From assembly GCA_041178425.1 (NCBI GenBank), contig JBEGVH010000041.1, forward strand, positions 1 through 43,446: 43,446 nt of DNA. The letters run 5' to 3'. The number at the start of each line of letters is the position of its first letter. Positions within the stretch are counted from its first letter, which is position 1. The notes beneath the pieces were generated by a model. It saw nothing but the letters and a program-made list of their open reading frames with translations. It was not told the DNA's origin and searched no databases. The position numbers were made by a program, and so were the translations under genes. Positions 2,697 through 43,446 of this stretch are shown here, piece after piece. The DNA is from Pseudomonadota bacterium (GTDB lineage: Bacteria; Bdellovibrionota; Bdellovibrionia; Bdellovibrionales; Bdellovibrionaceae).

Positions 2697-3185
2697 TTAA
2701 AAGTCGTCGTAGTCGAGTTTGAATTCAGAAGGACTAGAAAAAATAATGAGTCTTTGATCGTAGGATTTATAATCAAGAACTCCTGTGGGATGATTCAGTT
2801 TATTATAAAGAGACTCCGCCGCAGACCCAGTCCAGCGAATGGTCACAGTTCTTCGAGATGAATCAATTCTTACTCCTGGCCATCGATAAATCATCAATGT
2901 TCCATCTACACGTCCCTTCGCGTTTTTTGTGAGCGCGATGGTCATGGCTTCTTTCCATTTTAATTTTTTTGTGGTCCCACTCCCAAAAAGGGAACTTGCT
3001 GACGCCCCTTTTAAGGCCTCATAGAGACGAATGGAGTCTTGATCTTCGCTTCCAACAGGACCCGAAGAAATATTAATTAAGGCTCTGTCTGCACCCATGG
3101 GAATGTGGGCGTGTGTGCCAGCTTGCACAGCCACCGAAACTGAAAAAAATAAGCTCATGAAAATAGCAAAATTAAGGCTCTTCAT
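2697..3185 (-). CDS. Secreted hypothetical protein
   Basis: Sec signal peptide (MKSLNFAIFMSLFFSVSVAVQA); AGGAG Shine-Dalgarno. Confidence 0.8.
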   Translation of the reverse strand: MKSLNFAIFMSLFFSVSVAVQAGTHAHIPMGADRALINISSGPVGSEDQDSIRLYEALKGASASSLFGSGTTKKLKWKEAMTIALTKNAKGRVDGTLMIYRWPGVRIDSSRRTVTIRWTGSAAESLYNKLNHPTGVLDYKSYDQRLIIFSSPSEFKLDYDDF

Positions 3186-3213: not shown

Positions 3214-3243
3214 AAAAAAAGCCCGCAGAAGCGAGCTTTTTTT
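3214..3243 (-). terminator. Rho-independent terminator, possibly bidirectional
   Basis: Minus strand A7-GCTCGC-TTCT-GCGGGC-T7, 30 nt after the stop of 3273..3716. Confidence 0.8.
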
Positions 3244-3272: not shown

Positions 3273-3716
3273 TTAAAAAGGAATGGTCACCAGAACATCA
3301 TCACCCACTGGGCCACGCGCCATCAGATCGTTCACGTCCTTAAAATCGGCATTGCCATTAGCGCCATAGGACCAAATATAGAGTATCGAATCTTTGTTTC
3401 CGTCACCCTTGACCTGAAAATAAAAGGGCTGCCCCCATGCATCACGCCCAACTTCTCCGTTAAGACTTCTGCGTGTCGCCACAGAATTCTCGGACTCAGA
3501 GGCCAATCCTCGCTCCGGTGCAGCTCCTGGAAGAAACACTTTTTGCTCAAACTTATCTTCGATAAGACGTCTTCCTACTATCTCAGCACGGCGAGAGGTT
3601 CTCTCTTCCGCACTAGGAACTCGATTTTTCTGAAGATAAGTCCAGATGAAAGTTGCCAGCGCTGCAACAATAATAACTCCGTACAAAATTCCAACTCTAT
3701 TTGATCCACGTCTCAT
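3273..3716 (-). CDS. GspG/T2SSG-like pseudopilin-domain membrane protein
   Basis: N-terminal TM helix; C-terminal DAWGQPFYF...IWSYGANG...GDD matches the GspG C-terminal signature; GGAGG SD; 9 nt gap from the upstream gene. Confidence 0.7.
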   Translation of the reverse strand: MRRGSNRVGILYGVIIVAALATFIWTYLQKNRVPSAEERTSRRAEIVGRRLIEDKFEQKVFLPGAAPERGLASESENSVATRRSLNGEVGRDAWGQPFYFQVKGDGNKDSILYIWSYGANGNADFKDVNDLMARGPVGDDVLVTIPF

Positions 3717-3725
3717 GAGTTCCTC

Positions 3726-5102
3726 CTACGGACAGCACTTATATTGAACGGTTAGATTTACACCAGGAGCCAATGCAGGAGTGAAAGTCATCTTACTTCC
3801 AGACAAGGTCCAGGTATACCCAGAAGGAAGAGTCACTACTGGAGTTCCCGAGGGAACACATTCCAGATCAACACTGCTCACCGTTGAAACGATAGCATCC
3901 TTAAAATATTTCAAGTTGGTCGAGTAATCGCTATCGCATATATTACCCACAGTTCCACTGGTCATATTAGCTAGTTCAATGTACTTCGTTCCAACAAACG
4001 ACAAGCTTCCTTGAGTGTCTTGCGATTGCTTACACTGATTATCAGGAACCACGATGCTGTTGACAGCCATTCGTTTGCCCGCCCCAAAAACAGCATTCGC
4101 AGTGTTCACGAAAGTTGATGGAAGATTTTGAACTCCCAGTGCCTGGTATTGCTGAGAACTGAGCGACTGATTACCACCCACTGATCTCTCATCTTCATCA
4201 GAAATAATAATTGCAGCAAAAGCAGATCCGCTTCGATAGCAAGGATAAACAGGGTTATTTAACATCGATAAAATAGAGGCTTTGATACCCTGCTCGTCAT
4301 TGCTATAACCTGAGCCAAGATCATTAATCGTTTGTTGGAACACCGCCGAGAGATTCGCCGTTGCTTTGGTGAGAATTCTTGAATTCGTGCCCGACCACTT
4401 TATCGGCCGTCCCTCATAGTAACTCACATCTGTTGTGGTAATACACATTTGCCAATCGATATTTGCCGACTGCAGATCTGTCACAAAACCATTCAATCGT
4501 TGCGAAAGCTTCGTGTTATCAGGAGTCATAGACGATGAATCATCAACCACAATCAAAATATCTACTTGGTTATTTCCGGTTGGGACATTCACTGCGAGTG
4601 ATTTATCAATTGGATTACAGCTACAAGCCTGTGTATTACAAACTTGCTGAGTGGCTGGCTTTTCTCCGGTGCATGAGCTGTCTGGTTTTACACCCGTAGT
4701 ATCTCGACACTCAACAGTTCGAAATTGATTTCCTCCTCCACAGGTAGCATTACAATCACCCCAAGAGCCAACATTCCAGGCTGGAGATCCGCCGCAGGAT
4801 TGACCATTACACTCTTGAGTCGCAGCCGGCTTGGCCTCTTTACAACGCTCTTCTGGAACGAGCTGATTATTTTTATTCACACAGGTCACTTCTCTGGATT
4901 GCTGACCAACACCGCAAGCCTGGGAGCACATTCCCCAAGCTCCCACCTTCCAAACAGAAGTACCATCTTCGGGTGGCCACGTTGGCGTGGGAGTGTTTAA
5001 ACAGGCAGGATCTGTGCAAGAGGTGCTTTTCGCTGAAAAGCGCACAGGAGAACAAGCCATTAAACCGGCAAAAAGAATCAAGAAAACTGAAGTCTTCAAC
5101 AT
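3726..5102 (-). CDS. Lipoprotein with two thrombospondin type-1 (ADAMTS-like) repeats and a vWA/MIDAS domain
   Basis: Lipobox LMA-C from the M17 start; two WxxGxWxxCxxxCGxGxQxRxVxC...C...KP...C repeats (~4952-4794 and ~4778-4623); DILIVVDDSSSM (DxSxS) and IISDEDE. Confidence 0.88.
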   Translation of the reverse strand: MLKTSVFLILFAGLMACSPVRFSAKSTSCTDPACLNTPTPTWPPEDGTSVWKVGAWGMCSQACGVGQQSREVTCVNKNNQLVPEERCKEAKPAATQECNGQSCGGSPAWNVGSWGDCNATCGGGNQFRTVECRDTTGVKPDSSCTGEKPATQQVCNTQACSCNPIDKSLAVNVPTGNNQVDILIVVDDSSSMTPDNTKLSQRLNGFVTDLQSANIDWQMCITTTDVSYYEGRPIKWSGTNSRILTKATANLSAVFQQTINDLGSGYSNDEQGIKASILSMLNNPVYPCYRSGSAFAAIIISDEDERSVGGNQSLSSQQYQALGVQNLPSTFVNTANAVFGAGKRMAVNSIVVPDNQCKQSQDTQGSLSFVGTKYIELANMTSGTVGNICDSDYSTNLKYFKDAIVSTVSSVDLECVPSGTPVVTLPSGYTWTLSGSKMTFTPALAPGVNLTVQYKCCP

Positions 5103-5259: not shown

Positions 5260-7869
5260 CTATTTAGCTTTCAATAGCGGCTTTAAAAAGGGACCGGTCA
5301 CACTTTTTGAGTTTTTGACGATAACCTCAGGCGTTCCTTCCGCAACAATCTGCCCTCCTTTGCGTCCTGCCTCTGGGCCTAGATCAATGACGTGGTCGGC
5401 AATCTTAATAATCTCCAGGTTGTGCTCAATCACGAGCACGGTATTTCCCTGGTCCGCGAGTTCGTGCAGCAGTTCCGCCAACCGACGTACGTCATCAAAA
5501 TGAAGACCTGTTGTTGGTTCATCTAAAATATAGAGAGTGCTTCCGGTTCCCCGCTTAGACAGCTCCCGACTCAACTTGATTCTTTGAGCTTCACCTCCAC
5601 TGAGAGTGGTGGAACTTTGACCAAGCGTCATATAATCAAGCCCCACCCGATGAAGAGTCTCTAACTTGCGATAGATATTTTGGTGATGTTTAAAATAATC
5701 AAGGGCCTCTTCCACCGAAAACTCAAGCACATCGGCAATCGATTTGCCCCTATGCTTAACTGCTAAAATCTCACGGCTATAGCGTCGCCCTTCGCACACT
5801 TCACAAGGAACAAACACATCACTCAAAAAGTGCATCTCTAATTTAATTTGCCCTTGGCCCTGGCAATTTTCACAGCGACCACCTTTAACATTAAAACTAA
5901 ACTGACCCGGTTTATAACCCCTCACCTTTGATTCAGGCAATTGAGCAAACAAATCACGAATAAGAGGAAAAAGCCCAACGTACGTTGCTGGCGTTGAACG
6001 AGGAGTTCGACCGATTGGCTTTTGATTGATATCAATCACCTTATTGATGAATTCCAGCCCCTTAAATTGCTTGAAAGGAGCTGGTTCAACCGAGGCGCCG
6101 TTAATTTCGCGGGCTAATATTTTATAGAGAGTGTCCATGATGAGAGTGGATTTTCCACTGCCACTCACACCAGAAACAACCGTCAAAGTTCCCAGCGGAA
6201 TCTTTAAGTTGACCCTTTGAAGATTATTACCAGTAGCCTCGATCACTTCAAAAAAGCGACCATGGCCGGTTCTTCGCTCTACTGGAACTGGAATCCTCAC
6301 TTCTCCACGCAAATATTTTCCGGTAAGACTCTCTGGATTATTTCTAATTTCATCCAAAGATCCTTCCGCCATCAGTCGCCCCCCGAGCTTTCCTGCACGA
6401 GGCCCTAAGTCGATAATGTGATCAGCATAACAAATAGTATCTTCGTCGTGTTCTACCATAATCACGGTATTACCACGATCGCGAAGCTCCCCAATAATCG
6501 TTAGTAATTTTTGGTGATCCCTAGGATGAAGACCAATGCTGGGCTCATCTAAAACATAGAGAACTCCAACCAGAGAAGATCCAACCTGACTTGCTAAACG
6601 CAATCGCTGGGACTCTCCTCCCGACAAAGTTTGCACAGAACGATTGACGCTTAAATAACCCGTCCCAACGCGTATTAAATAATCGAGCTTCTCCAAGAGC
6701 GGGCGCAGAATTTTTTCACCCAATACTTTTTGTTTACTTTGAAAATTTCGATGAGCAAACCAATCTTGAAGGTCCTCCAGAGATAAATTTGACAACTGAG
6801 AAATAGTGGCACCATCTATTTTCACGCTCAGGGCCTCGGGGCACAAACGAGCTCCCTCACAGGCTCCGCAGGGTTTTAAAACTGTTTCATATTCCTCTTC
6901 ACCATCTTCATCTTGAAGCTTTTTACCATCGCGGCGATGATAGGTTACTTTTTTCAGCTGCCTTGTTCCTTCATCCGACACACCGAACTCGTTTTCTTCA
7001 ATGACATCCAAAGTTCCTAAGCCGTGACACTCTTTGCACGCTCCCCTTGGATGATTAAAGCTAAATAGCCTCGGTTCGAGCTCAGGAAAACTAAAACCAC
7101 AATCCGGGCAAACAGACTTTAACGAAAAGAGCGTTCGCTCACCGTTCATTTTTTCGATGACCAATCGACCCTGTGCCATGCTCAGCGCTGCATTGACACT
7201 CGTTTTGATTCGCTCTTGCAGATTAGATTTCACCATCAGCTGATCGACCACGAGATCAATCGTGTGGGCTTTGGTTTTTGCCAGTTTTTTAGGAGCACTG
7301 AGATCCATAAAGGTGCCATCAACACGCGCCTTTAAAAATCCTTTTTGAGCCCACTTTTGAAACTCCTTAAGAAACTCACCTTTTTTATTCTCAGCCATTG
7401 GAGCCAACAAAAGAAACTTTGTATTTTCTGGCCACGACATGAGCGTTGAAACAATTTGCGCCGGAGTCTGACTCGACAGCGGACGATGATGAGTCGGACA
7501 CTCGGGTGTTCCAATTTTAGCAAAAAGAAGTCGAAGATAATCATAAACTTCAGTAACAGTGCCGACCGTTGAACGTGGATTGGTAGAAACAGATTTTTGA
7601 TCAATAGCAATCGCTGGCGAAAGACCAGTCATCGAATCCACTTCGGGCTTTTTCATTTGCTCTAGGAACTGTCGAGCATAATTGGAAAGACTTTCGATAT
7701 ATCGACGATGGCCTTCGGCATAGACCGTTTCAAAAGCTAGGGAGGATTTACCGCTTCCACTGAGTCCGGTCATCACCGTGATTTTATTTCGAGGAATTCG
7801 CACCGAAACATCTTGAAGATTGTGTTCCCGCGCCCCCTTGACCACAATTCCATCAAAATCTTCAGTCAT
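5260..7869 (-). CDS. uvrA: Excinuclease ABC subunit A
   Basis: GAREHNL; two Walker A motifs (GLSGSGKSS, GVSGSGKST); LSGGE signatures; FSFN..GGRCE zinc fingers; GGAGG SD. Confidence 0.98.
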   Translation of the reverse strand: MTEDFDGIVVKGAREHNLQDVSVRIPRNKITVMTGLSGSGKSSLAFETVYAEGHRRYIESLSNYARQFLEQMKKPEVDSMTGLSPAIAIDQKSVSTNPRSTVGTVTEVYDYLRLLFAKIGTPECPTHHRPLSSQTPAQIVSTLMSWPENTKFLLLAPMAENKKGEFLKEFQKWAQKGFLKARVDGTFMDLSAPKKLAKTKAHTIDLVVDQLMVKSNLQERIKTSVNAALSMAQGRLVIEKMNGERTLFSLKSVCPDCGFSFPELEPRLFSFNHPRGACKECHGLGTLDVIEENEFGVSDEGTRQLKKVTYHRRDGKKLQDEDGEEEYETVLKPCGACEGARLCPEALSVKIDGATISQLSNLSLEDLQDWFAHRNFQSKQKVLGEKILRPLLEKLDYLIRVGTGYLSVNRSVQTLSGGESQRLRLASQVGSSLVGVLYVLDEPSIGLHPRDHQKLLTIIGELRDRGNTVIMVEHDEDTICYADHIIDLGPRAGKLGGRLMAEGSLDEIRNNPESLTGKYLRGEVRIPVPVERRTGHGRFFEVIEATGNNLQRVNLKIPLGTLTVVSGVSGSGKSTLIMDTLYKILAREINGASVEPAPFKQFKGLEFINKVIDINQKPIGRTPRSTPATYVGLFPLIRDLFAQLPESKVRGYKPGQFSFNVKGGRCENCQGQGQIKLEMHFLSDVFVPCEVCEGRRYSREILAVKHRGKSIADVLEFSVEEALDYFKHHQNIYRKLETLHRVGLDYMTLGQSSTTLSGGEAQRIKLSRELSKRGTGSTLYILDEPTTGLHFDDVRRLAELLHELADQGNTVLVIEHNLEIIKIADHVIDLGPEAGRKGGQIVAEGTPEVIVKNSKSVTGPFLKPLLKAK

Positions 7870-30854: not shown

Positions 30855-30862
30855 GTTAAGTG

Positions 30863-33800
30863 ATGCAAAGGATTGGTTTAGAAAAACTTTTTATGAATAA
30901 GAAAACTCTCACCGCGAATAAGAAATTTGCGATGGGCAACCTTTTAGTGATGTGGTTAATTCTTCTTATCTCGAATTACACTCACGCCGCCGACTACGGC
31001 GTCACTTATCAAGGAAAAATCGTTACCGATGCAGGACGCCCGCTCGTCGCCTCTAAAGTTGATTTCACTCTGAGAATTTTAGAATCCCGATCAAATTGTT
31101 TACTTTATAGTGAAAAACAATCGATCGACATGTCGTCTGGCGATGGAACCTTCTACTTGATTTTAGGTAAGGGCACGAGGATCGACAACGAACATTCGCT
31201 CGCTTTCGAAAAAATCTTCGATCCGGGTGCTCAACTTCCGGTCTCCTTAAACTGTCCACTGGGTTACGCTAAACAGCCTGGCGATGGTATGCGCTTGATG
31301 GCCTACTTCAACGCCGGCACTGGCCCGCAGGTTTTACGTCCTCTCGATATTAACCCGACTCCACTGAGTATTGACACAGTCAACGTGGGTGGTGTTTCAA
31401 GTTCGAATGTTCTAAGAGTCTCTGATGGCACGGCCGCCCCCATGACAGCGGCGAATTTGACCTACCTCACTTCAATACTTGCAAAAAACGGAACTATTAT
31501 AAGTAATGGAGTGTCAACTCGCGATCTTACTCTCGCTAATACCACGAACAATCAAGTTATGCTTAAGGCGCCAGAGGGTTCGTTTTCGAATTTCTCAATC
31601 GGGCTTCCTTCAAGTTCGGGTACCCAAGGGCAATTACTTTCTGCCGATGGTAGCGGTAACCTCGTTTGGTCGAACCCTCAGGGTGGCGGTACGGTTCTAT
31701 CGGTCACAGCAGGAACCGGACTTTCGGGCGGAACCATCACAAGCGTGGGTACCATAGGGCTTGCAGACACAGCTGTAACCCCCGGAACCTATGGTGGTAA
31801 CGGAGCCGTTCCTACTTTTACAGTCGATGCTCAAGGTCGAATCACATCAGCGAGCAATGCGGGAATTCCGAATGCTGATGCGACCAACTCAGGTTTATTA
31901 ACCACCGAAGACTGGAATAGATTTAACAATATGGTTCCGCTCACTGGTGGAACAATGACAGGAATGCTTCAACTTCCGAGCGGTGGTCTTCGCATCGGGG
32001 CCAATCAGTTCTACATGAACGGCAACAAGATCGGTCTCGGCACGACAACACCAACAGCCATTCTCCATTTGGGATCATCCGTTGGCTACCCCGCCATGAA
32101 ATTTACGGCCACGACACCAATAACTACGCCCGAAGCGGGCTCTCTTGAATACGACGGAACAAATCTCTTATTAACTGATAGCACTGGTCAAAGAACCGCC
32201 TTGGGCTTTGCTGGCCAGGGCATCGGCACCTTAATTGGTGACGTGAGCGCCACAGGTAATGGAACCGCGAATGCCATCGTTAACTCGGTAGGTGGATCGA
32301 CCGCCAACGAAATTCGAACGGCTGAACGCGCAGTGAATGTTACAGCAACAGCTAATAGCACGGCTTCCACACTGGTTAAGCGGGATGCTAGCGGTGGTGC
32401 TGCCTTTAAAGCTGTAAAAATTGATAATGTGGGTGGCAACAGCGTCACCTTAAAGTCGCCGCTGGCCCTCACAAGTTATGATATTACTTGGCCGAGTGCC
32501 GTTCCTGGAGCCGCTAATAGCGTTCTCCTTTCAGATACGAATGGAACTCTTTCTTGGGGCGATATTAGCAACATCACGGGAACTGTTGACCTCTCCAGCA
32601 ATAAAGTCACTGGTGTTCTTCCGATCGCCAATGGTGGTACGAATTCAAACACGGCACTCACTAATAACCAATTAATGGTGTCTGATAATGGCGCCATTAA
32701 AGAGTTTGGGGCGATGACCGATGGCCAAGTGATCGTTGGTAAAACAGGGTTTGCCCCTCAAAAAGTCGCGCTCTCAGGCGATATCAGTATCGATAACACA
32801 GGCGCAACCACAGTGAACTCTATCGCGGGTACCGCTGTGTCTGGTGTTGGTCTTGCCACTAACAACGTTTTACAAAATACTTCCGGTAGCGCTATTCCTG
32901 CAAACAGCCTTCTTATCACCAATGGCACAGGCACCGGCGTCACTGGATTATCCACCGGAGTGAATGGGGCGCTCGTTTCTGTGGGTGGTGTTTTACAATG
33001 GCAGGTTTTAACCGCCCAACTATTAGGTCTCGGTAACGTTGAAAACGTTGCCATCTCGACGTGGCCGGGCTCTGCCAACATCACAACCGTTGGAACCATT
33101 GGTAGCGGCACTTGGCAAGGTTCAGCCGTAGGGCCCACTTATGGTGGTACGGGCCAAACCACTTATGCCACGGGAGATATGCTCTACGGTAGCGCTCCAA
33201 ACACTCTTAGCAAATTATCCGGAAACACATCGACAACCACTAAATTTATGGCGCAAACCGGAGATGGCACCAACTCTGCCGCGCCAGTATGGTCGACAGT
33301 TTCAAAAAGCGACGTTGGTTTGGGAAATGTTGAAAACCAGGCTCTCTCCACTTGGACCGGCACCAACACAATTACAACCCTTGGAACAATTACCACGGGC
33401 ACATGGAATGGTTCAACGATCGCTCTCGACAAGGGTGGTACGGGGGCGACTGATGCTGCGACAGCAAGAACAAATTTAGGCGCTGCTGTGGCTGGAGCCA
33501 ACGGAGATATCACTTCTCTTACCGCTACGACATCAATTACGAGCACAGATATTTTGGCTTTGGCTTCCTCCACCGATAAAGACATCACAATCACTCCCGG
33601 TGGAAATGGCAACACTATTATTGGCGGCAATGTTGGAATTGGCTCTGCGGCACCCACTAACAAGTTAGAAGTCGTTGGCACTAATGGGACAACCGTCAAA
33701 ATCGTGGATGGCAACCAGGGTGTCAATAAAGTCCTCACCTCTGATGCCGACGGGGTCGCTCGATGGGCTGATTTACCAACGTCAGCACCCTCCACCGCTG

Positions 33801-36800
33801 GTACAGCTATCCTTAAGGGTAACGGCAGTGGTGGCTTTGCAGCGGCAGTTGTAAACACTGATTATCTTGGAATCACCGGACACACAAGCGTAACGACACT
33901 TGGTACAGTCACTACTGGTACTTGGAATGCAACCACGATCACTTCTGCGAAGGGTGGTACCGGACAGACCAGTTATAGCTTGGGCGACATCCTCTTCGGT
34001 AACGCTGGAGGCTCACTCAGCAAACTCACTGGTAACACTTCGGCAAATAAACAATTTTTATCTCAAACGGGCAACACTGTAACTTCGAACGCTCCCGTTT
34101 GGTCGAGTGTTTCTAAATCTGATGTGGGCTTAAGCAACGTCGAAAACACAGCTCTTTCCACTTGGACGGGCACAAACACGATCACTACATTAGGAACGAT
34201 CTCCACTGGTACCTGGAATGCCACAACCATCGCTGTAAATAAGGGCGGTACCGGAGCCACTGATCCTGCAGCGGCGAGAACAAACCTTAATGCCGCAGTC
34301 AAAGGCGCGAATGATGACATCACTTCACTGACAGGCGCCAACTCCATCACCAGCCCTTCTGCTCTTAATTTGGAGTCGGCTGCTAACCAAAATGTGAATC
34401 TTTCACCGGGCGCAAATGGTTTTGTTAATTTTAACAGCAGCGCCATGATGGGCACCAACGATCCAACTTTTAATACGGGTGCTTATCAAACACAAAACCG
34501 CATTTTCGCCATCAGTGGCGACGGCAGCGGAAGTGCACAATCCACTGGTATACTGGCCCTTGGCAACAATCGTCCCACTCCAGCCCCAGATGACGTGGCT
34601 GGTAGCATTGACTTCATCTCCAGCGGCAATGGAACTGGTCTCGCGCAACTTGGCGCGCGAATTAAGTCGATTGTTAAAGGCGATGGTGGAACTAATGGGT
34701 ACGGCCAAGATATCGCCTTTTATACCAAGGGCGATGATGCTGCTGTTATTTCGGAAAGAATGCGTATCGCTAATAATGGATATGTCGGTATCGGCACGTC
34801 TTCTCCAACGGCAAAACTAGAGGTCGTTGGGGGCGTTGGCGTTAAACCATTAAAAATCGTTGATGGCAGCGAAGGCAATGGCAAGGTCCTTACTTCAGAT
34901 GCAACAGGTAATGCCACTTGGCAAGCTCCAACAATTGGCGCACCGCCTACCTCAGGAACTTCAATTTTAAAAGGTGACGGTTTGGGTGGCTTTAATAGTG
35001 CCGTTGTGGGTGTTGACTATCTTGGCGCCTCGGGCGGCCCCACACTCACGACCGCCGGTACCATCACCACCGGAACATGGAATGCGACGGCGATCAGCCC
35101 TGCTTTTGGTGGTACTGGAATTACTACTTATAACATTGGTGATATGGTTTATGCCAACGGAACAAGTACCTTTCAAAAAATTGGTGGTAACCAAACTAAC
35201 AGCACCATGTTCCTTTCTCAAACAGGAAATGGTTCACTCCCAGGCGCCCCCGTTTGGAGAGGTATCACAAAGACAGACGTTGGTCTATCGAACGTCGAAA
35301 ACACCGCTCTTTCAACATGGGCGGGTTCAAGCAACATAACCACTCTGGGAACTATTACCACTGGTACATGGAATGGCTCAACGATTGCCGTTAATAAGGG
35401 TGGTACCGGCGCAACCGATGCGGGAGTTGCTCGTACAAACCTCGGTGCGGCGGCATCGGGTGCGAATGGCGACATTACATCACTAACAGCAACAACAAGC
35501 ATTACTAGTACAGCGGCCCTTGCGCTTAATTCAGCGGCCAACGAGAACATCACACTTTCTCCAGGTGGTTCGGGAAAAACAGTTGTTAATAGCAACATGG
35601 GCATCGGCACGACAGATCCTTCTTTCGGAACCAGCCTCTACCCGCTTCCTGCTCGGGTCATGGGAGTGACCGGCGATGGTTCAGACGCCGACACTTCCAA
35701 TGGAGTGATTGCCTTGGCCAACAACCGCCCCACACCCGCTGCAGGCGACACCGTGGGAGCCCTCGACTTCGTATCGGTGAATAATGGTTCCGGTGCTGCT
35801 CGTATGGGCGCAAGAGTAAAATCAGTCCTCACCGGTGCGGGTGGATCAAACGGCTTCGGACAAGATTTGATCTTCTACACAAAAAATGACGATGCTGCTA
35901 CCGCTACCGAAAAAGTTCGCATTACTCAGGGTGGTAAAGTGGGTATCGGCACGAATGCCCCTGGCACCATGCTCGAAGTCGTAGGAACCAGTGGCAACAC
36001 CCTCAAAATCGTTGATGGAAATCAGGGCATTAATAAACATCTCGTCTCTGATGCCAATGGTGTGGCTTCTTGGGCTCCGATTCCAGCATCAGCGCCTCCG
36101 ACTGGTGGAAGTGCCATCCTCAAGGGCGATGGAGCTGGTGGTTTTACTAACGCTGTGGCCAACACAGATTATCTCAGCATTACTGGGGCGAACAGCGTTA
36201 CCACTCTCGGTACAATCACAACTGGCACATGGAACGGAACAAAAATCGATCCAGCGTATGGTGGAACAGGCATCACTAGTTACACCGCGGGGGATATGGT
36301 TTACGCTACTGGTGCGACCACTCTTGAAAAAATGGCAGGTAACGCCACTCTCACAAAGAAGTTTATGTCACAATCCGGATCAGGCTTTTTACCGAATGCG
36401 CCTGAATGGTCTACGGTCACTAAAGCAGATGTGGGTTTGAGCAACGTAGAAAACACCGCTCTCTCAACATGGCCAGGATCGGCTAACGTCAGCACGGTCG
36501 GAACCATCACGTCGGGCACATGGAATGGTACGGCTGTTGGGATCGGATACGGTGGTACGGGCGCGACTGATGCGGAAACAGCTCGATCGAATTTAGGCGT
36601 TGCAGTTAAAGGTTCTAACAACGACATCACGGCGTTAAATGCCACAACTCAGATCAACAGCCCTAATGCGCTCATCTTAAGATCAGGAACAGATCAAGAT
36701 ATTACGTTCGAGCCTGGCGGCGTTGGTACGACCATCATAAATTCAAACATCGCCGTTAACACGCTTGACCCCACATTCAGCACGGGTCTTTATAATTCAC

Positions 36801-39800
36801 CAACGCAAATTATGTCGATCACAGGCAAAGGAACTGCAAGCGCCACTTCTAACGGTGTCCTCGCCCTCGCTAACAACCGTGCTACTCCGACGGTCGGCGA
36901 CACTGTGGGTGCAGTAGATTTCATTTCTGTGGGTAACGGTTCTGGTGCAGCTCAACGAGGCGCACGTATTAATTCCATATTGACGGGTTCTGGCGGTGGC
37001 AATGGTTTTGGGCAAGACCTTATTTTCTACACCAAAGGTGATAATACCACGTCATCAAGTGAGCGTGTTCGCATCACTAACGCTGGTAAAGTGGGTATCG
37101 GCACAAACACTCCGAGCACAATGCTCGAGGTGAACGGTGGTAACGGAACAACTTTAAAAATTGTCGATGGCAATCAGGGTACTAATAAATACTTAAAATC
37201 TGATGCCAACGGGGTAGCTTCTTGGGCAACCATCCCCTCTTCTGCACCCCCAACCTCCGGTACAGCCATTCTTAAGGGCGATGGAGCTGGTGGAACATCA
37301 AGTGCTGTAGCGAACACTGATTATCTCTCAATCACTGGACACACGAGCGTAACAACTCTCGGTACCGTAACCACTGGTACATGGAATGCAACGACGATCG
37401 GAACTGGATACGGCGGAACCGGAAATACAACCTATGCTCTTGGCGATATTTTATTCGGCGATGCGAGCAACTCACTCACAAAACTTTCCGGTAATACTTC
37501 GGCCACGAAAAAATTCCTCTCACAACAGGGAACAGGTTCAGGGTCAGCCGCTCCTGTTTGGCTAGATGTTACTAAAACGGACGTTGGCCTCAGCAATGTC
37601 GAAAACACAGCCCTCTCCACTTGGCCTGGGTCAACGAATATCGTTTCAGTGGGAACAGTCACTTCTGGAACTTGGAGAGGAACGCCCGTCGAAGTTGCTT
37701 ATGGTGGAACGGGCGGTACTAACGCAACCTCAGCAAGAACGGCATTAAGTGCAGCAAAGAGTGGCGACAATAGTGATATCACGGGCCTAAACACCGTGCG
37801 TTCCATCACAAGCGATCAATCGCTTGCCTTACAATCGGCGAGCAATCAAAATATCGTTCTCACTCCTGGTGGAGCTGGCAACACGATCTTAAACGGAAAT
37901 ATCGGTGTTAATAACGCTAACCCGGCATATGCGTTTGATATGGTCGGCGCTACGATGAGAACAACTCGCTATTCTGCTGATGCAAATCCAGCCACGTTTA
38001 TCTTAGGTAAAGCTCGCGGAAACGCAGGCGGCGCCGCCGCTGCCGAATCGGCAGATGTGCTGGCTCAAATTTCGGCTCAAGGTTACGATGGAACGAGCTT
38101 CGCTGATGGTGGAATGATCCGCTTTAAAGCCACCGAAAACTTTGGCGGAGCCGCCAACGGTACATCGATTGAACTTTTAAACAAACCAAATGGCAGCACG
38201 ACTCTCACCTCGCGAATGTTTATCGGCCAAGATGGAAAAGTGGGTTTCGGAACTACAACTCCTGCTGCCAATTTAGAAGTAAAAGGCGACTTCCGCATCA
38301 ACGGAACGACTTCAGGCTATGTTGGATTTGCCTCTCAAGCCGCAGCGGGTTCAACCACATATACTTTCCCTACTGCTCCTACCAACGGGTACTTTTTATC
38401 TACAGATGCGACTGGTAACTTGAGCTGGTCGGTGCCGACCTTATCAACGGTCTCTGGTATTTTGCCAGTAGCCAATGGCGGAACGGGCGCTGCCACAGCC
38501 TCAGCAAATAAAATATTTGCTGGCCCAACAACTGGTGCTGATGCGGCTCCAAGTTATCGGTCACTGGTGGCAGCGGATATCCCTGCCGCGGCCGGTGATG
38601 TATCAGGTGCTTACTCAGCATTGGCCGTAGATAAAATTAAAGGCGTTCCACTTTCAATCACAACACCTGCTACTGGCAACTTCTTGAAGTACGATAGCGG
38701 AAACTGGGTAAACGCTAATATTACGGCGAGTGATATTGCATCCGGACAAGTTGCTATGGCGAATGGCGGCACCGGTGCGAATCTTACCGCTAATAATGGT
38801 GGAATCGTTTACACCGATGCGACTAAGATGGCGATTCTCAATGGAACCGCCACGTCAGGACTTCCCCTTCTCTCTGGTGCTAACGCTGCTCCCACTTGGG
38901 GCACGGTGAATCTTTCGGGTGGAAACGTATCGCTTCCTGCAACAGGCACTGTGTCCACGTCTGCGGGTAACCTCACTGTTCGTGGTGCGGCAGATACGAT
39001 CGTTGGTAACGACACTGTCACAGCAACCACTTCAATTTATGGTGGCGCTAACGGCGCAACCAACATGGTGCTTAACTCCACCGGTGTTGCGGTAGCTGGC
39101 AATGTAGCTGTTACAGGTAACGTCTCTGCCACAGGCAATATTAGCGCAACTAACTTTGTTCCAACAAGCGCAACAGTACCAACGAATGGTCTCTATCTCC
39201 CAGCTGCAAATACTGTTGGTATTGCCTCCAATACCACGGCTGCCGCTCGATTTACGGCTACCAATGCTATGGTGGCAGGAAAATTCGGAATTGGCTCAGC
39301 AACGACGGCTCCTAGTTATGATCTCGGCATCGATGGCACTGCGGCTCGCACCATGGGTGTCGAGCGTAACTCTGCGGGCGACGCAGGCGGAGCTCTCACC
39401 CTCACTGCTGGTGGTGCTGCTCTTAACTCGAGTGATAAAGCGGGCGGAGACCTAATTTTGGCTAGCGGAGTCTCAACCGGAACAGGCTCATCGAAGATTT
39501 CATTTCAAACATCGCCAGCCGGAGGTGCCGGATCAAGCGATAATGCTGCCGCCACTCGCATGACAATCCTTGGCAATGGTAATGTGGGTATTGGTACGAC
39601 AACACCAACAGCCCTTCTTGATGTTAAGGGAACAATGAGATTAAGTGGATCCACTTCTGGTTACGTGGGTTTGGCAACACAAGCAGCCGCTGGCAACACG
39701 ACCTATACTCTCCCCGCTGCCCCAACCGCGAATCACTTTTTACAAACAGATGCCAACGGTCAGTTAACATGGGCGGCTCCCAGTGTATCGACAGTCACTG

Positions 39801-42800
39801 GAATTTTACCGATTGCTAACGGTGGTACTGGTGTGGGTTCTTCTAATCAAAACACTGTTTTTGCAGGCCCCCTTTCTGGAAATGGCGACCCTACTTTTAG
39901 AATGCTCACTGCCGCTGACTTACCTTCGGCCGCAGGTGATGTCTCTGGTGGTTATGCCGCTCTGTCTGTTGATAAAATTAAAGGTGTTTCATTAACAATG
40001 AACAGCCTCACAAATGGTAACTTTTTAAAATACAATGGCACAGACTGGGTGAATTCCAATCTTTCAGCCTCTGATATTACTTCGGGTCAATTAGCGATGT
40101 CTCGCGGTGGAACTGGCGCGAGTATCACTGCAAACAACGGTGGTATTGTTTACTCTGATGCTTCGAATCTCGCACTACTTAACGGAACAGCAACGGCTGG
40201 CCTGCCTCTCGTATCCGGTGCAAGCGGAGCTCCAGCTTGGTCTACCGTTAGTTTGGCCAGCGGCAATGTGACCTTGCCTGCCGCCGGGACTTTAGCCACA
40301 GCAAGCGGTGACCTGACTGTAAAAGGCGCTGCAGATACATATATTGGTAATAATGTCGCTGGCTCCACCACGATATATGGTGGCACCGGCGGAGCATCGA
40401 ATATTGTCGTCAACACAACTGGCACTACAGTGACTGGAAGCCTTTATGCTCCGAATTTAATTCCAAGCAGCAACGTGGTACCAACAAATGGTGTTTACTT
40501 GCCAGCAGCTAACACTGTAGGTATTGCCGCTAACTCTTTGGCGGCAGCAAAATTTTCATCAACGTCTGCGAATTTCCTCGGTAAAGTTAGCATCGGACCT
40601 GTGTCAACGACCCCTGTCAATGATCTCGGTCTCGATGGAACGGCCGCTCGCAGCATTGGTATTGAGCGCAACCCGGACCCAGCGAACGGGCAAAACCTAA
40701 CAGTGGTCGCTGGAGGCGCGCAAACTGGCGGAACCGACAGAGCGGGCGGCGACTTGATCCTTTCGAGTGGCGTCTCAACAGGCACGGGGTCTTCAAATAT
40801 CCAATTTAAAACGGCTGCCGGCGGAGGCGCTGGCTCCAATGACCGAACCCCTGCTACGCGAGTCACTATTCTCGGTAGCGGAAACGTGGGTATCGGAACA
40901 ACTTCACCGCAATCTCTCCTCGATGTTAAAGGTAACTTTAGAATTTCTGGTTCTACAGATGGCTCTGTCGTACTCGCTGCTCCAACATCAGGAGCTTCAG
41001 CTACCTACATCCTGCCGCCCGCACCTACGAATGGTGCCTTCTTAACAACGGATGGGACGGGCACTCTTAGCTGGGGAAGCCCAAGTCTTTCTTCGGTCAG
41101 TGGAGTATTACCGATTGCAAATGGTGGTACTGGCGCTGCCACGACAACTCAAAACTATGTCTTCGCTGGTCCTCCAGCAGGCGGAACAGGCGCGCCAAGT
41201 TATAGATTGTTAGTATCGTCAGATATTCCAAACGCAGCCGGAGATGTATCCGGCAATTATGGATCACTCACCGTCGATAAAATTAAAAACGTGGCACTAT
41301 CAATCACCAGCATAACCAGCGGTAACTTCTTAAAGTACAATGGCACAAACTGGGTCAATTCAAATCTCTCTGCGAGTGATATTGCGTCTGGCGAACTTGC
41401 CTTGAATCGTGGTGGATCCGGAGCCAATCTCACAGCGAACAATGGTGGTATCGTTTATTCGAACGCCTCTAGCCTAGCCATTTTGAATGGCACGGCCACC
41501 GCTGGGTTACCACTCATCTCTGGTTCTAATGACACTCCGGCATGGTCTACCGTTAGTCTCGCGAGCGGAAATGTCACACTTCCAAACACTGGTACTATAT
41601 CAACAAGCAGTGGTGACTTAACAGTAAAAGGTGCGGCCAACACTAATCTCGGCAACAGTGGCGTCACTGGAACGACGACGGTCTACGGTGGAACAACGGG
41701 TGGATCAAGAGTCACTCTCGATACAACGGGCGTGACTGTGACTGGTAGCTTCTACGCGCCTAACTTAATCCCAAGTAGCTCTGTGGCACCAACAAATGGT
41801 ATTTACCTCCCAGCCGCCAACACAGTTGGTATTTCTGCCAGCTCGACGGCATCGGCTCAGTTCACATCAACAACGGCTGCTTTTGTCGGAAAACTAGGTA
41901 TCGGATCTCTCACTGCTCCAGCCAATGACCTCAGCTTTGCAGGCACTGCCGCACGCACGATTGCCGTTGAACGAAACACAAGCGCAGCCGCAGGACAAGG
42001 ACTTACTATCAATGCGGGTGGTGCAAAATCTGGCGAATCAAATCTCGCCGGTGGTGATCTTACCCTCTCAAGTGGTATTTCTACTGGCAACGGAACATCA
42101 AATATTTACTTTAAGACGGCGGCCGCTGGCTCTTCAGGTTCTTCAGACCAAGCGCCTGCTACTCGTATGACTATCCTCGGCAGTGGAAATGTGGGTGTCG
42201 GCACTTCGACGCCAACATCTCCTCTTGACGTCAAGGGCGAATTCAGAATCAGCGGTGCTACTTCTGGTTATGTAGGATTCGCCGCCCAAGCGGCTGCAGG
42301 CACAACAACCTATACGCTGCCAGCGGCTCCTCAGGCTGGCAAATTCCTGCAAACCGATGGCAATGGTGCTTTAACGTGGGTGACTCCTGACCTTTCAAAT
42401 GCCATCTCTGGAACACTTGGGGTTGCTAACGGCGGTACAGGAGCCAGCACTTTAACCTCTAAAGGAATTCTGTACGGAAACGGCACTAGCGCTGTTGGCG
42501 TCACCGCTGCAGGCTCTCAGTATCAGGTATTGCAAGCAGGTTCGGGCGGTACACCAGAGTTTGGAGCGCTTCATCTTGACCAAGCAGCAGCTATTACTGG
42601 CACACTCCCCGTTAATAATGGTGGTACGGGGATCACCACTGGCACTCAAGGTGGCATGGTTTACTTTAGTGCCAATAACATGATGGCATCGACAGGTGCG
42701 ATGACTCAATATGGTCTCGTATACGGTGGAGGAACGGGATCTGCGCCCGCTTCGACTGGTGCTATGACCGATGGTCAATTCATTGTTGGTAAAAATTCGA

Positions 42801-43446
42801 GTGCGCCTCAGGTTGTGACAATGGGTGGAGACGCCATCGTGAGCAATACTGGTACAGTGACTGTCAATCTCACTGGTAATACAACGCTCAAAGCACTTGG
42901 TCTTGGCGTGAGCCCAGGAGCAGGTCGTATCGTGGTGACTGATAACTCATCAGGTGCAACACTGATCACTGCTGACCCAACTTCTTCTGACTACTTTACG
43001 CAGTATGCGCGCTTGAATGGTCGAGGCAGTTCACAGGTTTTCTATGGCGCAACATCTGCAAGCGGCAGCCTTTATCTCGAATCAACTCTCGACGCCACAA
43101 AAGGGAACGTGATTATTAACTCTGCTGGAGGAAACGTCGGTGTCGGCACGTCTTCACCGCTTTCAACCCTCGATGTTAATGGTGACATCAGAATCCGAGC
43201 GACTGATGCAAGTTCAATTATCTTGCGCGCCCCTACTGGTTCTGGAGTGACTTATACTTTCCCTGCCTCAGCGCCTGGAACCGCCACTGGAAAGTTCTTA
43301 ACCGCAAACACATCGGGCACTTTATCGTGGGCTGAACCGGTGGGCGTTGCTCCGGATGTCGCATCGGCTACTGGTACGCTAGCAGTTGGTCACGGCGGTA
43401 CGGGCTTAACGAGCGGTACTTCTGGAGGTATCCCTTACTTTAGCGC
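30863..43446 (+). CDS. Giant secreted phage-tail-fibre-like adhesin (MAT-like), >4190 aa, 3' end outside the window
   Basis: Hand translation gives MQRIGLEKLFMNKK...LILLISNYTHA/ADYGVTYQGKI...CLLYSEKQSIDMSSGDGTF. The same frame reads AVGHGGTGLTSGTSGGIPYFS at the window end and is in frame at every point checked. Fibre motifs TPGTYG...TVDAQGRIT, KSDVGLGNVEN, LPIANGGTG and GNVGIGTTTP recur. Alternative start 30893. Confidence 0.9.
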   Translation, partial: MQRIGLEKLFMNKKTLTANKKFAMGNLLVMWLILLISNYTHAADYGVTYQGKIVTDAGRPLVASKVDFTLRILESRSNCLLYSEKQSIDMSSGDGTFYLILGKGTRIDNEHSLAFEKIFDPGAQLPVSLNCPLGYAKQPGDGMRLMAYFNAGTGPQVLRPLDINPTPLSIDTVNVGGVSSSNVLRVSDGTAAPMTAANLTYLTSILAKNGTIISNGVSTRDLTLANTTNNQVMLKAPEGSFSNFSIGLPSSSGTQGQLLSADGSGNLVWSNPQGGGTVLSVTAGTGLSGGTITSVGTIGLADTAVTPGTYGGNGAVPTFTVDAQGRITSASNAGIPNADATNSGLLTTEDWNRFNNMVPLTGGTMTGMLQLPSGGLRIGANQFYMNGNKIGLGTTTPTAILHLGSSVGYPAMKFTATTPITTPEAGSLEYDGTNLLLTDSTGQRTALGFAGQGIGTLIGDVSATGNGTANAIVNSVGGSTANEIRTAERAVNVTATANSTASTLVKRDASGGAAFKAVKIDNVGGNSVTLKSPLALTSYDITWPSAVPGAANSVLLSDTNGTLSWGDISNITGTVDLSSNKVTGVLPIANGGTNSNTALTNNQLMVSDNGAIKEFGAMTDGQVIVGKTGFAPQKVALSGDISIDNTGATTVNSIAGTAVSGVGLATNNVLQNTSGSAIPANSLLITNGTGTGVTGLSTGVNGALVSVGGVLQWQVLTAQLLGLGNVENVAISTWPGSANITTVGTIGSGTWQGSAVGPTYGGTGQTTYATGDMLYGSAPNTLSKLSGNTSTTTKFMAQTGDGTNSAAPVWSTVSKSDVGLGNVENQALSTWTGTNTITTLGTITTGTWNGSTIALDKGGTGATDAATARTNLGAAVAGANGDITSLTATTSITSTDILALASSTDKDITITPGGNGNTIIGGNVGIGSAAPTNKLEVVGTNGTTVKIVDGNQGVNKVLTSDADGVARWADLPTSAPSTAGTAILKGNGSGGFAAAVVNTDYLGITGHTSVTTLGTVTTGTWNATTITSAKGGTGQTSYSLGDILFGNAGGSLSKLTGNTSANKQFLSQTGNTVTSNAPVWSSVSKSDVGLSNVENTALSTWTGTNTITTLGTISTGTWNATTIAVNKGGTGATDPAAARTNLNAAVKGANDDITSLTGANSITSPSALNLESAANQNVNLSPGANGFVNFNSSAMMGTNDPTFNTGAYQTQNRIFAISGDGSGSAQSTGILALGNNRPTPAPDDVAGSIDFISSGNGTGLAQLGARIKSIVKGDGGTNGYGQDIAFYTKGDDAAVISERMRIANNGYVGIGTSSPTAKLEVVGGVGVKPLKIVDGSEGNGKVLTSDATGNATWQAPTIGAPPTSGTSILKGDGLGGFNSAVVGVDYLGASGGPTLTTAGTITTGTWNATAISPAFGGTGITTYNIGDMVYANGTSTFQKIGGNQTNSTMFLSQTGNGSLPGAPVWRGITKTDVGLSNVENTALSTWAGSSNITTLGTITTGTWNGSTIAVNKGGTGATDAGVARTNLGAAASGANGDITSLTATTSITSTAALALNSAANENITLSPGGSGKTVVNSNMGIGTTDPSFGTSLYPLPARVMGVTGDGSDADTSNGVIALANNRPTPAAGDTVGALDFVSVNNGSGAARMGARVKSVLTGAGGSNGFGQDLIFYTKNDDAATATEKVRITQGGKVGIGTNAPGTMLEVVGTSGNTLKIVDGNQGINKHLVSDANGVASWAPIPASAPPTGGSAILKGDGAGGFTNAVANTDYLSITGANSVTTLGTITTGTWNGTKIDPAYGGTGITSYTAGDMVYATGATTLEKMAGNATLTKKFMSQSGSGFLPNAPEWSTVTKADVGLSNVENTALSTWPGSANVSTVGTITSGTWNGTAVGIGYGGTGATDAETARSNLGVAVKGSNNDITALNATTQINSPNALILRSGTDQDITFEPGGVGTTIINSNIAVNTLDPTFSTGLYNSPTQIMSITGKGTASATSNGVLALANNRATPTVGDTVGAVDFISVGNGSGAAQRGARINSILTGSGGGNGFGQDLIFYTKGDNTTSSSERVRITNAGKVGIGTNTPSTMLEVNGGNGTTLKIVDGNQGTNKYLKSDANGVASWATIPSSAPPTSGTAILKGDGAGGTSSAVANTDYLSITGHTSVTTLGTVTTGTWNATTIGTGYGGTGNTTYALGDILFGDASNSLTKLSGNTSATKKFLSQQGTGSGSAAPVWLDVTKTDVGLSNVENTALSTWPGSTNIVSVGTVTSGTWRGTPVEVAYGGTGGTNATSARTALSAAKSGDNSDITGLNTVRSITSDQSLALQSASNQNIVLTPGGAGNTILNGNIGVNNANPAYAFDMVGATMRTTRYSADANPATFILGKARGNAGGAAAAESADVLAQISAQGYDGTSFADGGMIRFKATENFGGAANGTSIELLNKPNGSTTLTSRMFIGQDGKVGFGTTTPAANLEVKGDFRINGTTSGYVGFASQAAAGSTTYTFPTAPTNGYFLSTDATGNLSWSVPTLSTVSGILPVANGGTGAATASANKIFAGPTTGADAAPSYRSLVAADIPAAAGDVSGAYSALAVDKIKGVPLSITTPATGNFLKYDSGNWVNANITASDIASGQVAMANGGTGANLTANNGGIVYTDATKMAILNGTATSGLPLLSGANAAPTWGTVNLSGGNVSLPATGTVSTSAGNLTVRGAADTIVGNDTVTATTSIYGGANGATNMVLNSTGVAVAGNVAVTGNVSATGNISATNFVPTSATVPTNGLYLPAANTVGIASNTTAAARFTATNAMVAGKFGIGSATTAPSYDLGIDGTAARTMGVERNSAGDAGGALTLTAGGAALNSSDKAGGDLILASGVSTGTGSSKISFQTSPAGGAGSSDNAAATRMTILGNGNVGIGTTTPTALLDVKGTMRLSGSTSGYVGLATQAAAGNTTYTLPAAPTANHFLQTDANGQLTWAAPSVSTVTGILPIANGGTGVGSSNQNTVFAGPLSGNGDPTFRMLTAADLPSAAGDVSGGYAALSVDKIKGVSLTMNSLTNGNFLKYNGTDWVNSNLSASDITSGQLAMSRGGTGASITANNGGIVYSDASNLALLNGTATAGLPLVSGASGAPAWSTVSLASGNVTLPAAGTLATASGDLTVKGAADTYIGNNVAGSTTIYGGTGGASNIVVNTTGTTVTGSLYAPNLIPSSNVVPTNGVYLPAANTVGIAANSLAAAKFSSTSANFLGKVSIGPVSTTPVNDLGLDGTAARSIGIERNPDPANGQNLTVVAGGAQTGGTDRAGGDLILSSGVSTGTGSSNIQFKTAAGGGAGSNDRTPATRVTILGSGNVGIGTTSPQSLLDVKGNFRISGSTDGSVVLAAPTSGASATYILPPAPTNGAFLTTDGTGTLSWGSPSLSSVSGVLPIANGGTGAATTTQNYVFAGPPAGGTGAPSYRLLVSSDIPNAAGDVSGNYGSLTVDKIKNVALSITSITSGNFLKYNGTNWVNSNLSASDIASGELALNRGGSGANLTANNGGIVYSNASSLAILNGTATAGLPLISGSNDTPAWSTVSLASGNVTLPNTGTISTSSGDLTVKGAANTNLGNSGVTGTTTVYGGTTGGSRVTLDTTGVTVTGSFYAPNLIPSSSVAPTNGIYLPAANTVGISASSTASAQFTSTTAAFVGKLGIGSLTAPANDLSFAGTAARTIAVERNTSAAAGQGLTINAGGAKSGESNLAGGDLTLSSGISTGNGTSNIYFKTAAAGSSGSSDQAPATRMTILGSGNVGVGTSTPTSPLDVKGEFRISGATSGYVGFAAQAAAGTTTYTLPAAPQAGKFLQTDGNGALTWVTPDLSNAISGTLGVANGGTGASTLTSKGILYGNGTSAVGVTAAGSQYQVLQAGSGGTPEFGALHLDQAAAITGTLPVNNGGTGITTGTQGGMVYFSANNMMASTGAMTQYGLVYGGGTGSAPASTGAMTDGQFIVGKNSSAPQVVTMGGDAIVSNTGTVTVNLTGNTTLKALGLGVSPGAGRIVVTDNSSGATLITADPTSSDYFTQYARLNGRGSSQVFYGATSASGSLYLESTLDATKGNVIINSAGGNVGVGTSSPLSTLDVNGDIRIRATDASSIILRAPTGSGVTYTFPASAPGTATGKFLTANTSGTLSWAEPVGVAPDVASATGTLAVGHGGTGLTSGTSGGIPYFS
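33332..37600 (+). repeat. Repeat block A in the fibre gene: one 270-aa unit and three 384-385-aa units
   Basis: EN(Q/T)ALSTW anchors at 33332, 34142, 35297, 36449 and 37601 (spacings 810, 1155, 1152, 1152 nt). Confidence 0.85.
38273..42223 (+). repeat. Repeat block B in the fibre gene: three 434-448-aa units
   Basis: L(D/E)VKG anchors at 38273, 39617, 40919 and 42224 (spacings 1344, 1302, 1305 nt); DKIK anchors at 38630, 39971 and 41276. Confidence 0.85.

Follow-up and report, generated by a model that had tools for sequence, protein, structure and literature searches.

In Bdellovibrio bacteriovorus, Bd0875 is a surface-exposed protein with a lipobox and a beta-domain with an inserted MIDAS (adhesion site dependent on a metal ion); a cap has been tied to its role in invasion, and versions changed at D66 or E213 failed to complement (Tyson et al., 2024; PMC11003981). 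In Myxococcus xanthus, the likeness of a von Willebrand factor A (vWA)/sandwich head to integrin beta has been published for CglD (bioRxiv 10.1101/2023.10.19.562135). In type II secretion systems (T2SS), N-anchored chaperones encoded adjacent to their substrate are a precedent (PMC4713064). Here we describe a pair of genes, open reading frames (ORF) A and B, on contig JBEGVH010000041.1 (assembly GCA_041178425.1) of a member of the Bdellovibrionaceae; the window, that is, the whole stretch of DNA analyzed, has 43,446 nucleotides. ORF A encodes a lipoprotein in which thrombospondin type 1 (TSP1) repeats precede a vWA/MIDAS head, and it is probably a surface adhesin with a variable stalk. ORF B encodes a pseudopilin-like protein that may help A to reach the surface. 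Coordinates are collected in Table 1; G, C, and L numbers are our handles for genomes, contigs, and loci, G000 being the genome of the window.

ORF A starts with an ATG preceded by AAGGA and runs from 5102 to 3726. The original prediction had described it as a lipoprotein with two six-Cys TSP1 repeats of ADAMTS style, and the profile searches agree with this: the repeat pair scored 82.4 bits against PF19030 (TSP1_ADAMTS; cut-off 23.8, E 2.8e-23) and 38.2 bits against PF00090 (cut-off 21.6), and the lipobox is present. Each repeat has six Cys, two Trp, and two Arg, which indicates the short, ADAMTS form of the Trp ladder. No other protein of the genome matched PF19030, and none of 14 control genomes had a match. 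The homolog search gave 636 proteins; the relatives bear Bdellovibrionales names, which places the host in that order. Repeats and lipoboxes were counted in the 120 listed. A lipobox-like motif was present in 109 of the 115 that start with Met. Four repeats were found in 86 proteins, two in 28, one in four, three in one, and none in one, which fits a stalk of variable length. A frame-shift or contamination artefact was rejected in view of the intact frames, the 636 homologs, and the host-like GC content at third codon positions (GC3). Two TSP1-less loci of the same clade (L025 and L046) have long N-terminal regions with weak PKD matches in place of TSP1, so the stalk looks exchangeable. Locus L147 (G130:C37:66000-82000) carries two seemingly identical one-repeat TSP1-vWA genes 4.3 kb apart, either a recent duplication or an assembly artefact.

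The vWA domain with an intact DxSxS MIDAS, also part of the original prediction, was not detected by the Pfam VWA model but is seen in the match to NCBIfam NF052240 (Bdellovibrio MIDAS adhesin) and in the predicted fold. The C-terminal 290 residues matched NF052240 with an E value of 2.8e-37 and 128.8 bits, under the cut-off of 700. Among 118 aligned homologs D187, S189, and S191 are unchanged in all, and D302 in 117. The AlphaFold2 (AF2) model, built from 118 sequences (predicted local distance difference test, pLDDT, 91.6; predicted template modeling score, pTM, 0.73), comprises two repeats rich in beta structure, a single strand, the vWA domain, and a beta-sandwich at the C-terminus. Almost all Foldseek matches listed for it are integrin-beta chains (best E 3.9e-11, TM about 0.34). 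In the wide VIA search, integrin-beta chains and the pilus-tip adhesin PitA aligned across model residues 147-443, over 223-245 residues (230-246 for integrin beta) with a root mean square deviation (rmsd) of about 6-8 Å. The VIA Z scores to vWA domains were 12-15, with 14.7 for BatB and 14.1 for integrin beta. PitA aligned over the whole head (245 residues, Z 12.2), and TRAP over the vWA core only (177 residues, Z 12.8). When PDB sequences were searched with the vWA profile, the only matches were short and N-terminal. In the model, the head resembles the betaI-hybrid unit of integrins in layout and falls outside the integrin family. Glu270 and Asp195 (+8 after the MIDAS Asp) presumably recall the MIDAS Glu and the ADMIDAS Asp of betaI.

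All 151 genomes sampled from the order encode relatives of the head of A. A quick tree built from 48 heads placed A in a clade of 34 rows (support in the Shimodaira-Hasegawa-like approximate likelihood ratio test, SH-aLRT, 99) that includes TSP1-less paralogs and is separate from the rows scoring over the NF052240 cut-off, so that A is a paralog and not an ortholog of Bd0875. A belongs to the broad class of Bdellovibrio lipobox MIDAS proteins, in which a lipobox goes together with a vWA domain inserted in an N/C-terminal beta-domain. It keeps D187, S189, S191, E270, D302, and E303; when a row over the cut-off is numbered from D66, E213 falls on E303. A therefore keeps, as D187 and E303, the equivalents of both residues essential in Bd0875, which counts for an adhesin. 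The NF052240 match, these residues, and the tree uphold the proposal of a candidate predator adhesin related to the Bdellovibrio MIDAS adhesins. Three more MIDAS paralogs are encoded in the genome (G000:C16:168842-169921, C40:146331-147257, and C20:34208-34774), and the one on C16 is the nearest of the three to the Bd0875 model (287 bits).

After removal of duplicates from the collected loci, the TSP1-vWA fusion was present in 18 genomes, one of which (G016) was left out of the following count, its sequence ending too soon. B follows A in 9 of the 17 assessable genomes (G000, G111, L039, G143, G094, G078, G082, G018, and G382), which belong to two families, with gaps of 9-31 nucleotides; the other eight are G117, G081, G133, G057, G110, G044, G102, and G130. 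The flanking genes differ among genomes (uvrA, an ABC-type ATPase, HAD/GTPase, and others, with labels partly read from sequence). In a metagenome set of 80 loci, of which 3 TSP1-bearing and 26 TSP1-less loci were not assessable, B follows A in five of eight assessable TSP1-bearing loci. Of the three negatives, two appear to be the same sequence, and the other repeats a genome that is part of the count above. B was never found after TSP1-less relatives of A (0/18 genome loci and 0/43 assessable metagenome loci, 0/61 together). Since kin are not independent, the counts are evidence of linkage but do not amount to a statistical test. The gene pair is thus conserved beyond this genome, in about half of the carriers. 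As to the apparent operon of the original prediction, the 9-nucleotide gap in the window and the GGAGG overlapping the stop codon of A speak for it. B is followed by a 13-bp hairpin and a U run (z -3.5, one of 200 shuffles equally stable), though the consensus terminator scan did not list the hairpin at 3214-3243.

ORF B had been called GspG-like with an N-terminus that lacks the prepilin motif, and this description holds: it has GspG-like motifs and no G/FTLxE. Its match to T2SSG (PF08334) reached 15.7 bits and stayed below the cut-off of 21. Of 37 family members, 28 matched PF08334 weakly (E 0.05 or better), and the B-family profile hit PulG with an E value of 0.0037. In the Atlas, B scored 0.97 against a Bdellovibrionota cluster named GspG. 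The model of B (pLDDT 79.9, pTM 0.61) gave mostly pilins and pseudopilins as top VIA rows, with modest Z scores of 5-6, and just E 0.36 in Foldseek. The hhalign comparison of the B family with the single GspG of the genome gave a probability of 1.7%, so a pairwise link between the two is not supported. The canonical GspG is encoded elsewhere in the genome, at G000:C9, and so are two prepilin peptidases; no T2SS locus was seen around B among the examined neighbors. A KGD integrin-ligand motif in B was rejected, being conserved in the closest relatives only.

A profile of 37 B sequences found 674 representatives. The family occurs in 101 of 151 genomes of the order, in 92 of them at E 3e-12 or better and mostly as one copy per genome, and in none of 164 genomes of other orders at 1e-10. 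Twenty loci of a core paralog were selected from the 92 so as to span families. The core B gene precedes a TPR lipoprotein gene in 20 of 20 and is followed by a LolB-like gene in 19 of 20; the locus mostly continues from the LolB-like gene to prkA, with a PhaR-like gene divergent upstream. This company of a TPR lipoprotein and LolB-like genes points to lipoprotein or envelope handling. In the window's genome the core locus is at G000:C24:12000-18356 (L151; the others are L161-L180). The core paralog, which reached 22 bits against PF08334, just over the cut-off, was present in all 17 genomes sampled from one genus of the family. Judged from sequence, the B of the window is apparently a dedicated offshoot of this order-wide and seemingly undescribed family.

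A strict G/FTLxE site was found in 0 of 150 representatives of the family, and a loose form in 12. A remnant of the leader, F-x-[TS]-x-[DE], is kept in 20 of 34 core copies (with Gly in 4 of 34) and in 0 of 14 copies paired with A; by their alignment, core copies have a decayed prepilin leader that is lost in the paired ones. The nine paired B proteins lie on one side of a branch (SH-aLRT 88) and share residues of their own, R43, I52, F56, and L85. Both a core and a paired copy are present in G000, G111, and G382; G143, G078, and G082 have the paired copy only, and their core locus is empty. One reading of this pattern is a duplication in the family of the window, followed by transfer of the pair.

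Another feature of B is the motif R-x-x-A-S. R69, A72, and S73 are unchanged in 37 of 37 sequences, and the motif is present in 140 of 150 representatives. It stands at the start of the sole segment of the B model with pLDDT below 50 (residues 70-79). It aligns with QGLxAL of GspG and so may be structural. Across the whole genome, R-x-[PLIV]-A-S is more frequent than in shuffles (94 vs. 61.7); the counts are 35 (shuffles, 16.4) for 696 exported-like proteins and 41 (shuffles, 27) for 1236 cytoplasmic-like proteins. The enrichment is strongest in linkers of exported-like proteins, and the TPR lipoprotein encoded in the core locus has the motif as well. It may be a signal for cleavage or glycosylation.

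From the observed domains, motifs, gene linkage, and family distribution of A and B, we put forward a combined model of a lipid-anchored adhesin and an uncleaved inner-membrane helper that exports or displays it; we consider this model plausible, just short of probable. A would be a lipid-anchored surface adhesin with a MIDAS-bearing vWA head. Its disulfide-rich repeats are predicted to form a stalk of two or four units that raises the head off the anchor, and the head is predicted to be a vWA domain inserted in a beta-sandwich, as in the integrin betaI-hybrid unit. By comparison with Bd0875 and integrins, the MIDAS metal would bind an acidic group on the prey or substratum, and load would move the last vWA helix against the sandwich, giving catch-and-release binding. 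B would stay uncleaved in the inner membrane and assist the export or display of A. Its gene context suggests a substrate-dedicated copy of an order-wide envelope factor, acting chaperone-like as do the proteins encoded beside T2SS substrates; the helper role is proposed because of this analogy with adjacent membrane-anchored chaperones and because of the ancestral place of B among lipoprotein genes.

Several points weigh against this model. A is not the ortholog of Bd0875, with 129 against 700 bits and a separate clade, and the cap insertion above the MIDAS is absent from it and present in row L108. Three other MIDAS genes had no deletion phenotype (Tyson et al., 2024). Many plain vWA domains have Z scores as high as the integrin-beta match, whose long alignments have an rmsd of 6-8 Å. 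B is not next to A in 8 of 17 carriers; G057 and G110 have no B-family match at all, and those in G044 and G130 are weak, near 1e-3, so B is not needed by every A. When the leader is left out, support for the clade of paired B falls to 65, and this is a meeting point of long branches. The LolB label lies under the cut-off (E 1.2e-5), and the likeness of B to known T2SS chaperones is an analogy only.

B might only be co-transcribed with A, being a core-gene copy that has changed place and is regulated together with A but never acts on it. That about half of the carriers lack B would fit this, and so would the other unannotated secreted neighbors found in other clades of A. In G143, G078, and G082, where the single B is beside A and the core locus is empty, B may just carry out the core function from its new position. 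However, A and B change genomic setting together, with gaps of 9-31 nucleotides, the paired copies share their four own residues, and G000, G111, and G382 keep both copies. This explanation deserves serious attention, though we find it rather unlikely. It is quite improbable that B is a minor pilin or pseudopilin in a type IV filament with A at the tip, and the pilus or pseudopilus association of the original prediction is now doubtful. The prepilin peptidases of the genome, the hit of the family profile to PulG, the alignment of PitA over the whole head of A, and the leader remnant of 20 of 34 core copies would agree with such a filament, and pilin folds do head the VIA list for B. Against it, Z scores of 5-6 are also typical of common arrangements, and the Foldseek E value was just 0.36. 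The remnant is absent from all 14 paired copies, the strict site from all 150 representatives; the lipobox would tether A to a membrane; no pilus or T2SS genes were seen near the pair, GspG is encoded elsewhere, and 8 of 17 carriers have no adjacent B.

Two further explanations concern what A binds. As a substratum adhesin of a gliding machinery, like CglB or CglD, A would not be a prey adhesin at all. A TSP1-less member of its clade weakly matches residues 639-892 of CglD (NF033765, E 1e-6), but A itself has no match to the CglD or CglB models at E 0.1, and no gliding genes were recognized near the pair in the listed loci, whose neighbors were scanned against families in part; we hold this to be very improbable. 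The chance that the TSP1 repeats are the ligand-binding part, for eukaryotic glycans or matrix, and attach the module to a eukaryotic host or surface, seems slight. The closest long non-family proteins to the repeats are ADAMTS-, papilin-, and spondin-like (33%-43% identity; 11 hits, 18 candidates), and eight of the nine listed Atlas clusters near them are eukaryotic, the ninth having no recorded taxa (scores 0.80-0.83, a lead only). Of 301 genomes of the phylum, however, 44 had PF19030 matches (over the cut-off in 40), in many unrelated architectures, as would be expected of generic spacers.

These other TSP1 architectures (L083, L089, L090, L095, and L096) include glycosidase-like, PKD, cytochrome c, and spondin-type repeat proteins. 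A phylogeny of the repeats was made as a test of horizontal transfer, and the tree (177 repeats, 57 columns) gave no donor: it does not resolve, and bacterial and eukaryote-like repeats are intermixed, 4 of the 11 "eukaryotic" proteins being labeled so by assumption. GC3 (0.36-0.40) is like that of the host (0.40), and a recent gain is not indicated. The known distribution of TSP1 makes an old gain from eukaryotes plausible; we claim no direction of transfer.

A wider proposal, which we regard as doubtful, is that Bdellovibrionales have an undescribed family of membrane proteins with a pseudopilin fold that cannot be cleaved and that serve as adaptors, bringing lipoproteins to the cell surface. 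One copy would be dedicated to an integrin-beta-like, thrombospondin-stalked prey adhesin, with which it travelled between families, and the R-x-x-A-S loop would mark, throughout the lineage, exported proteins of the predator for processing or modification.

Table 1. Features of the ORF A/B region of the window
Feature	Positions	Strand	Description or basis
ORF A, 458 aa	3726..5102	minus	lipoprotein, two TSP1 repeats (ADAMTS type), vWA/MIDAS inserted in small beta-sandwich
Signal peptide II and lipobox L-M-A-C17, Ser at +2	5052..5102	minus	sequence
TSP1 repeat 1, residues 49-104, 6 Cys	4791..4958	minus	PF19030, 55.8 bits
TSP1 repeat 2, residues 107-161, 6 Cys	4620..4784	minus	PF19030, 51 bits
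Head: vWA core (about 3873-4574) in beta-sandwich of one N-terminal strand and C-terminal 45 residues	3729..4610	minus	predicted: AF2, Foldseek, VIA
MIDAS D187-x-S189-x-S191 (D187 = Bd0875 D66)	4530..4544	minus	invariant, 118/118
E270, Glu just before helix, likely MIDAS loop-2 position (putative role)	4293..4295	minus	118/118, 49/49
D302-E303, loop-3 acids (E303 = Bd0875 E213)	4194..4199	minus	alignment; Tyson et al., 2024
GGAGG ribosome site of B, overlaps stop codon of A	3722..3726	minus	sequence
ORF B, 147 aa	3273..3716	minus	N-terminal membrane helix and predicted pilin/pseudopilin-like fold; DxWG, WSxG, and GDD motifs as in GspG; prepilin site absent
R69-G-L-A-S73, near-invariant, predicted disordered loop of B	3498..3512	minus	alignment, model
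Terminator-like hairpin and U run after B	3214..3243	minus	folding vs. shuffles

TSP1-vWA genes without B, and also G382 with B, often have one of two secreted-looking neighbors of 490-670 aa in the same direction (L041:3-1502, L148:1750-3258, and L138:5884-7707; L143:2521-4533, L144:3459-4961, L146:156-2090, and L147:2647-4656). These gave no Pfam match, and no NCBIfam match was obtained for one of each kind. In the window, a secreted-looking ORF of 162 aa lies past the terminator (2697-3185, minus strand); it has no family match and a 36% identical paralog on G000:C20, and it was not seen beside the A-B pair in other genomes. Upstream of A there is a uvrA-like gene, named from sequence (5260-7869, minus strand), which is shared only with L039; a second UvrA-like gene is on G000:C36. 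A giant ORF of more than 4195 aa (30860-43444, plus strand) runs off the window. It has no Pfam match; at the N-terminus there is a match to NF053851, a model for mosaic adhesive trimer fibres (70 bits, cut-off 60).

For the grip of Bdellovibrio-like predators on their prey and for the route of their lipoprotein adhesins to the surface, the A-B pair is a testable candidate, an adhesin of variable reach (two or four repeats) with a linked membrane factor. The occurrence of the core paralog in 17 of 17 genomes of one genus suggests that deleting a gene of the family may be feasible in laboratory strains. The literature was searched in part, mostly in open-access main texts, and we found no description of TSP1-vWA proteins in Bdellovibrio, of this pseudopilin-like family, or of the R-x-x-A-S motif. 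The words "thrombospondin" and "pseudopilin" are absent from the main text of PMC11003981, and protein A is not described in the accessible parts of PMC9946355 (on CglB), PMC12428579, PMC2651865, and bioRxiv 10.1101/2023.11.21.568195. The concept of such an adhesin is already known from Bd0875, CglB, and CglD, which limits the surprise.

A is like Bd0875/Bd1483 of B. bacteriovorus (NF052240) in its lipobox, in the MIDAS vWA domain within an N/C-terminal beta-domain, and in the equivalents of D66 and E213 (Tyson et al., 2024); it differs by its TSP1 stalk, the lack of a cap, a score far under the equivalog cut-off, and its other clade. It is similar to CglD of M. xanthus as a lipoprotein with a beta-integrin-like vWA/beta-sandwich and eukaryote-like Cys-rich modules (bioRxiv 10.1101/2023.10.19.562135). 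The 1130 aa of CglD, however, include calcium repeats of COMP type and EGF-like domains, whereas A has type-1 repeats in 458 aa; A does not match the CglD profile NF033765, and a TSP1-less paralog of its clade does so weakly (E 1e-6). B shares with GspG/PulG (PF08334, TIGR01710) a predicted fold of helix and beta-sheet and the motifs DxWG..SxG..DD, but it is under the cut-off, has no class III signal peptide, and lies outside a T2SS locus. With the T2SS chaperones CpaB/LipB it shares an N-terminal membrane helix and a gene beside that of an exported protein (PMC4713064); the likeness is an analogy only, and B is predicted to have a pseudopilin-like fold.

The whole predicted head of A aligns structurally with the integrin beta headpiece (betaI and hybrid) at 11%-15% identity, but A lacks the PSI domain, the EGF legs, and the transmembrane helix; it is lipid-anchored, and no alpha subunit is encoded nearby. 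Members of the apicomplexan TRAP/MIC2 family have the vWA domain before the TSP1 repeat, a C-terminal transmembrane helix, and a cytoplasmic tail. Of the likeness to them in the original prediction, the shared domain set remains: A, like TRAP/MIC2, has a MIDAS-bearing vWA domain and TSP1 in one protein, and its core reached Z 12.8 to TRAP. In A, however, the order is reversed, only the 177 residues of the vWA core align, there is no transmembrane helix or cytoplasmic tail, and the protein ends in a beta-sandwich; where A has the MIDAS Glu, TRAP/MIC2 presumably have Thr. The likeness is best read as convergence, in which vWA and TSP1, the domain set of apicomplexan invasion adhesins, were assembled separately in bacteria on an integrin-beta-like head.

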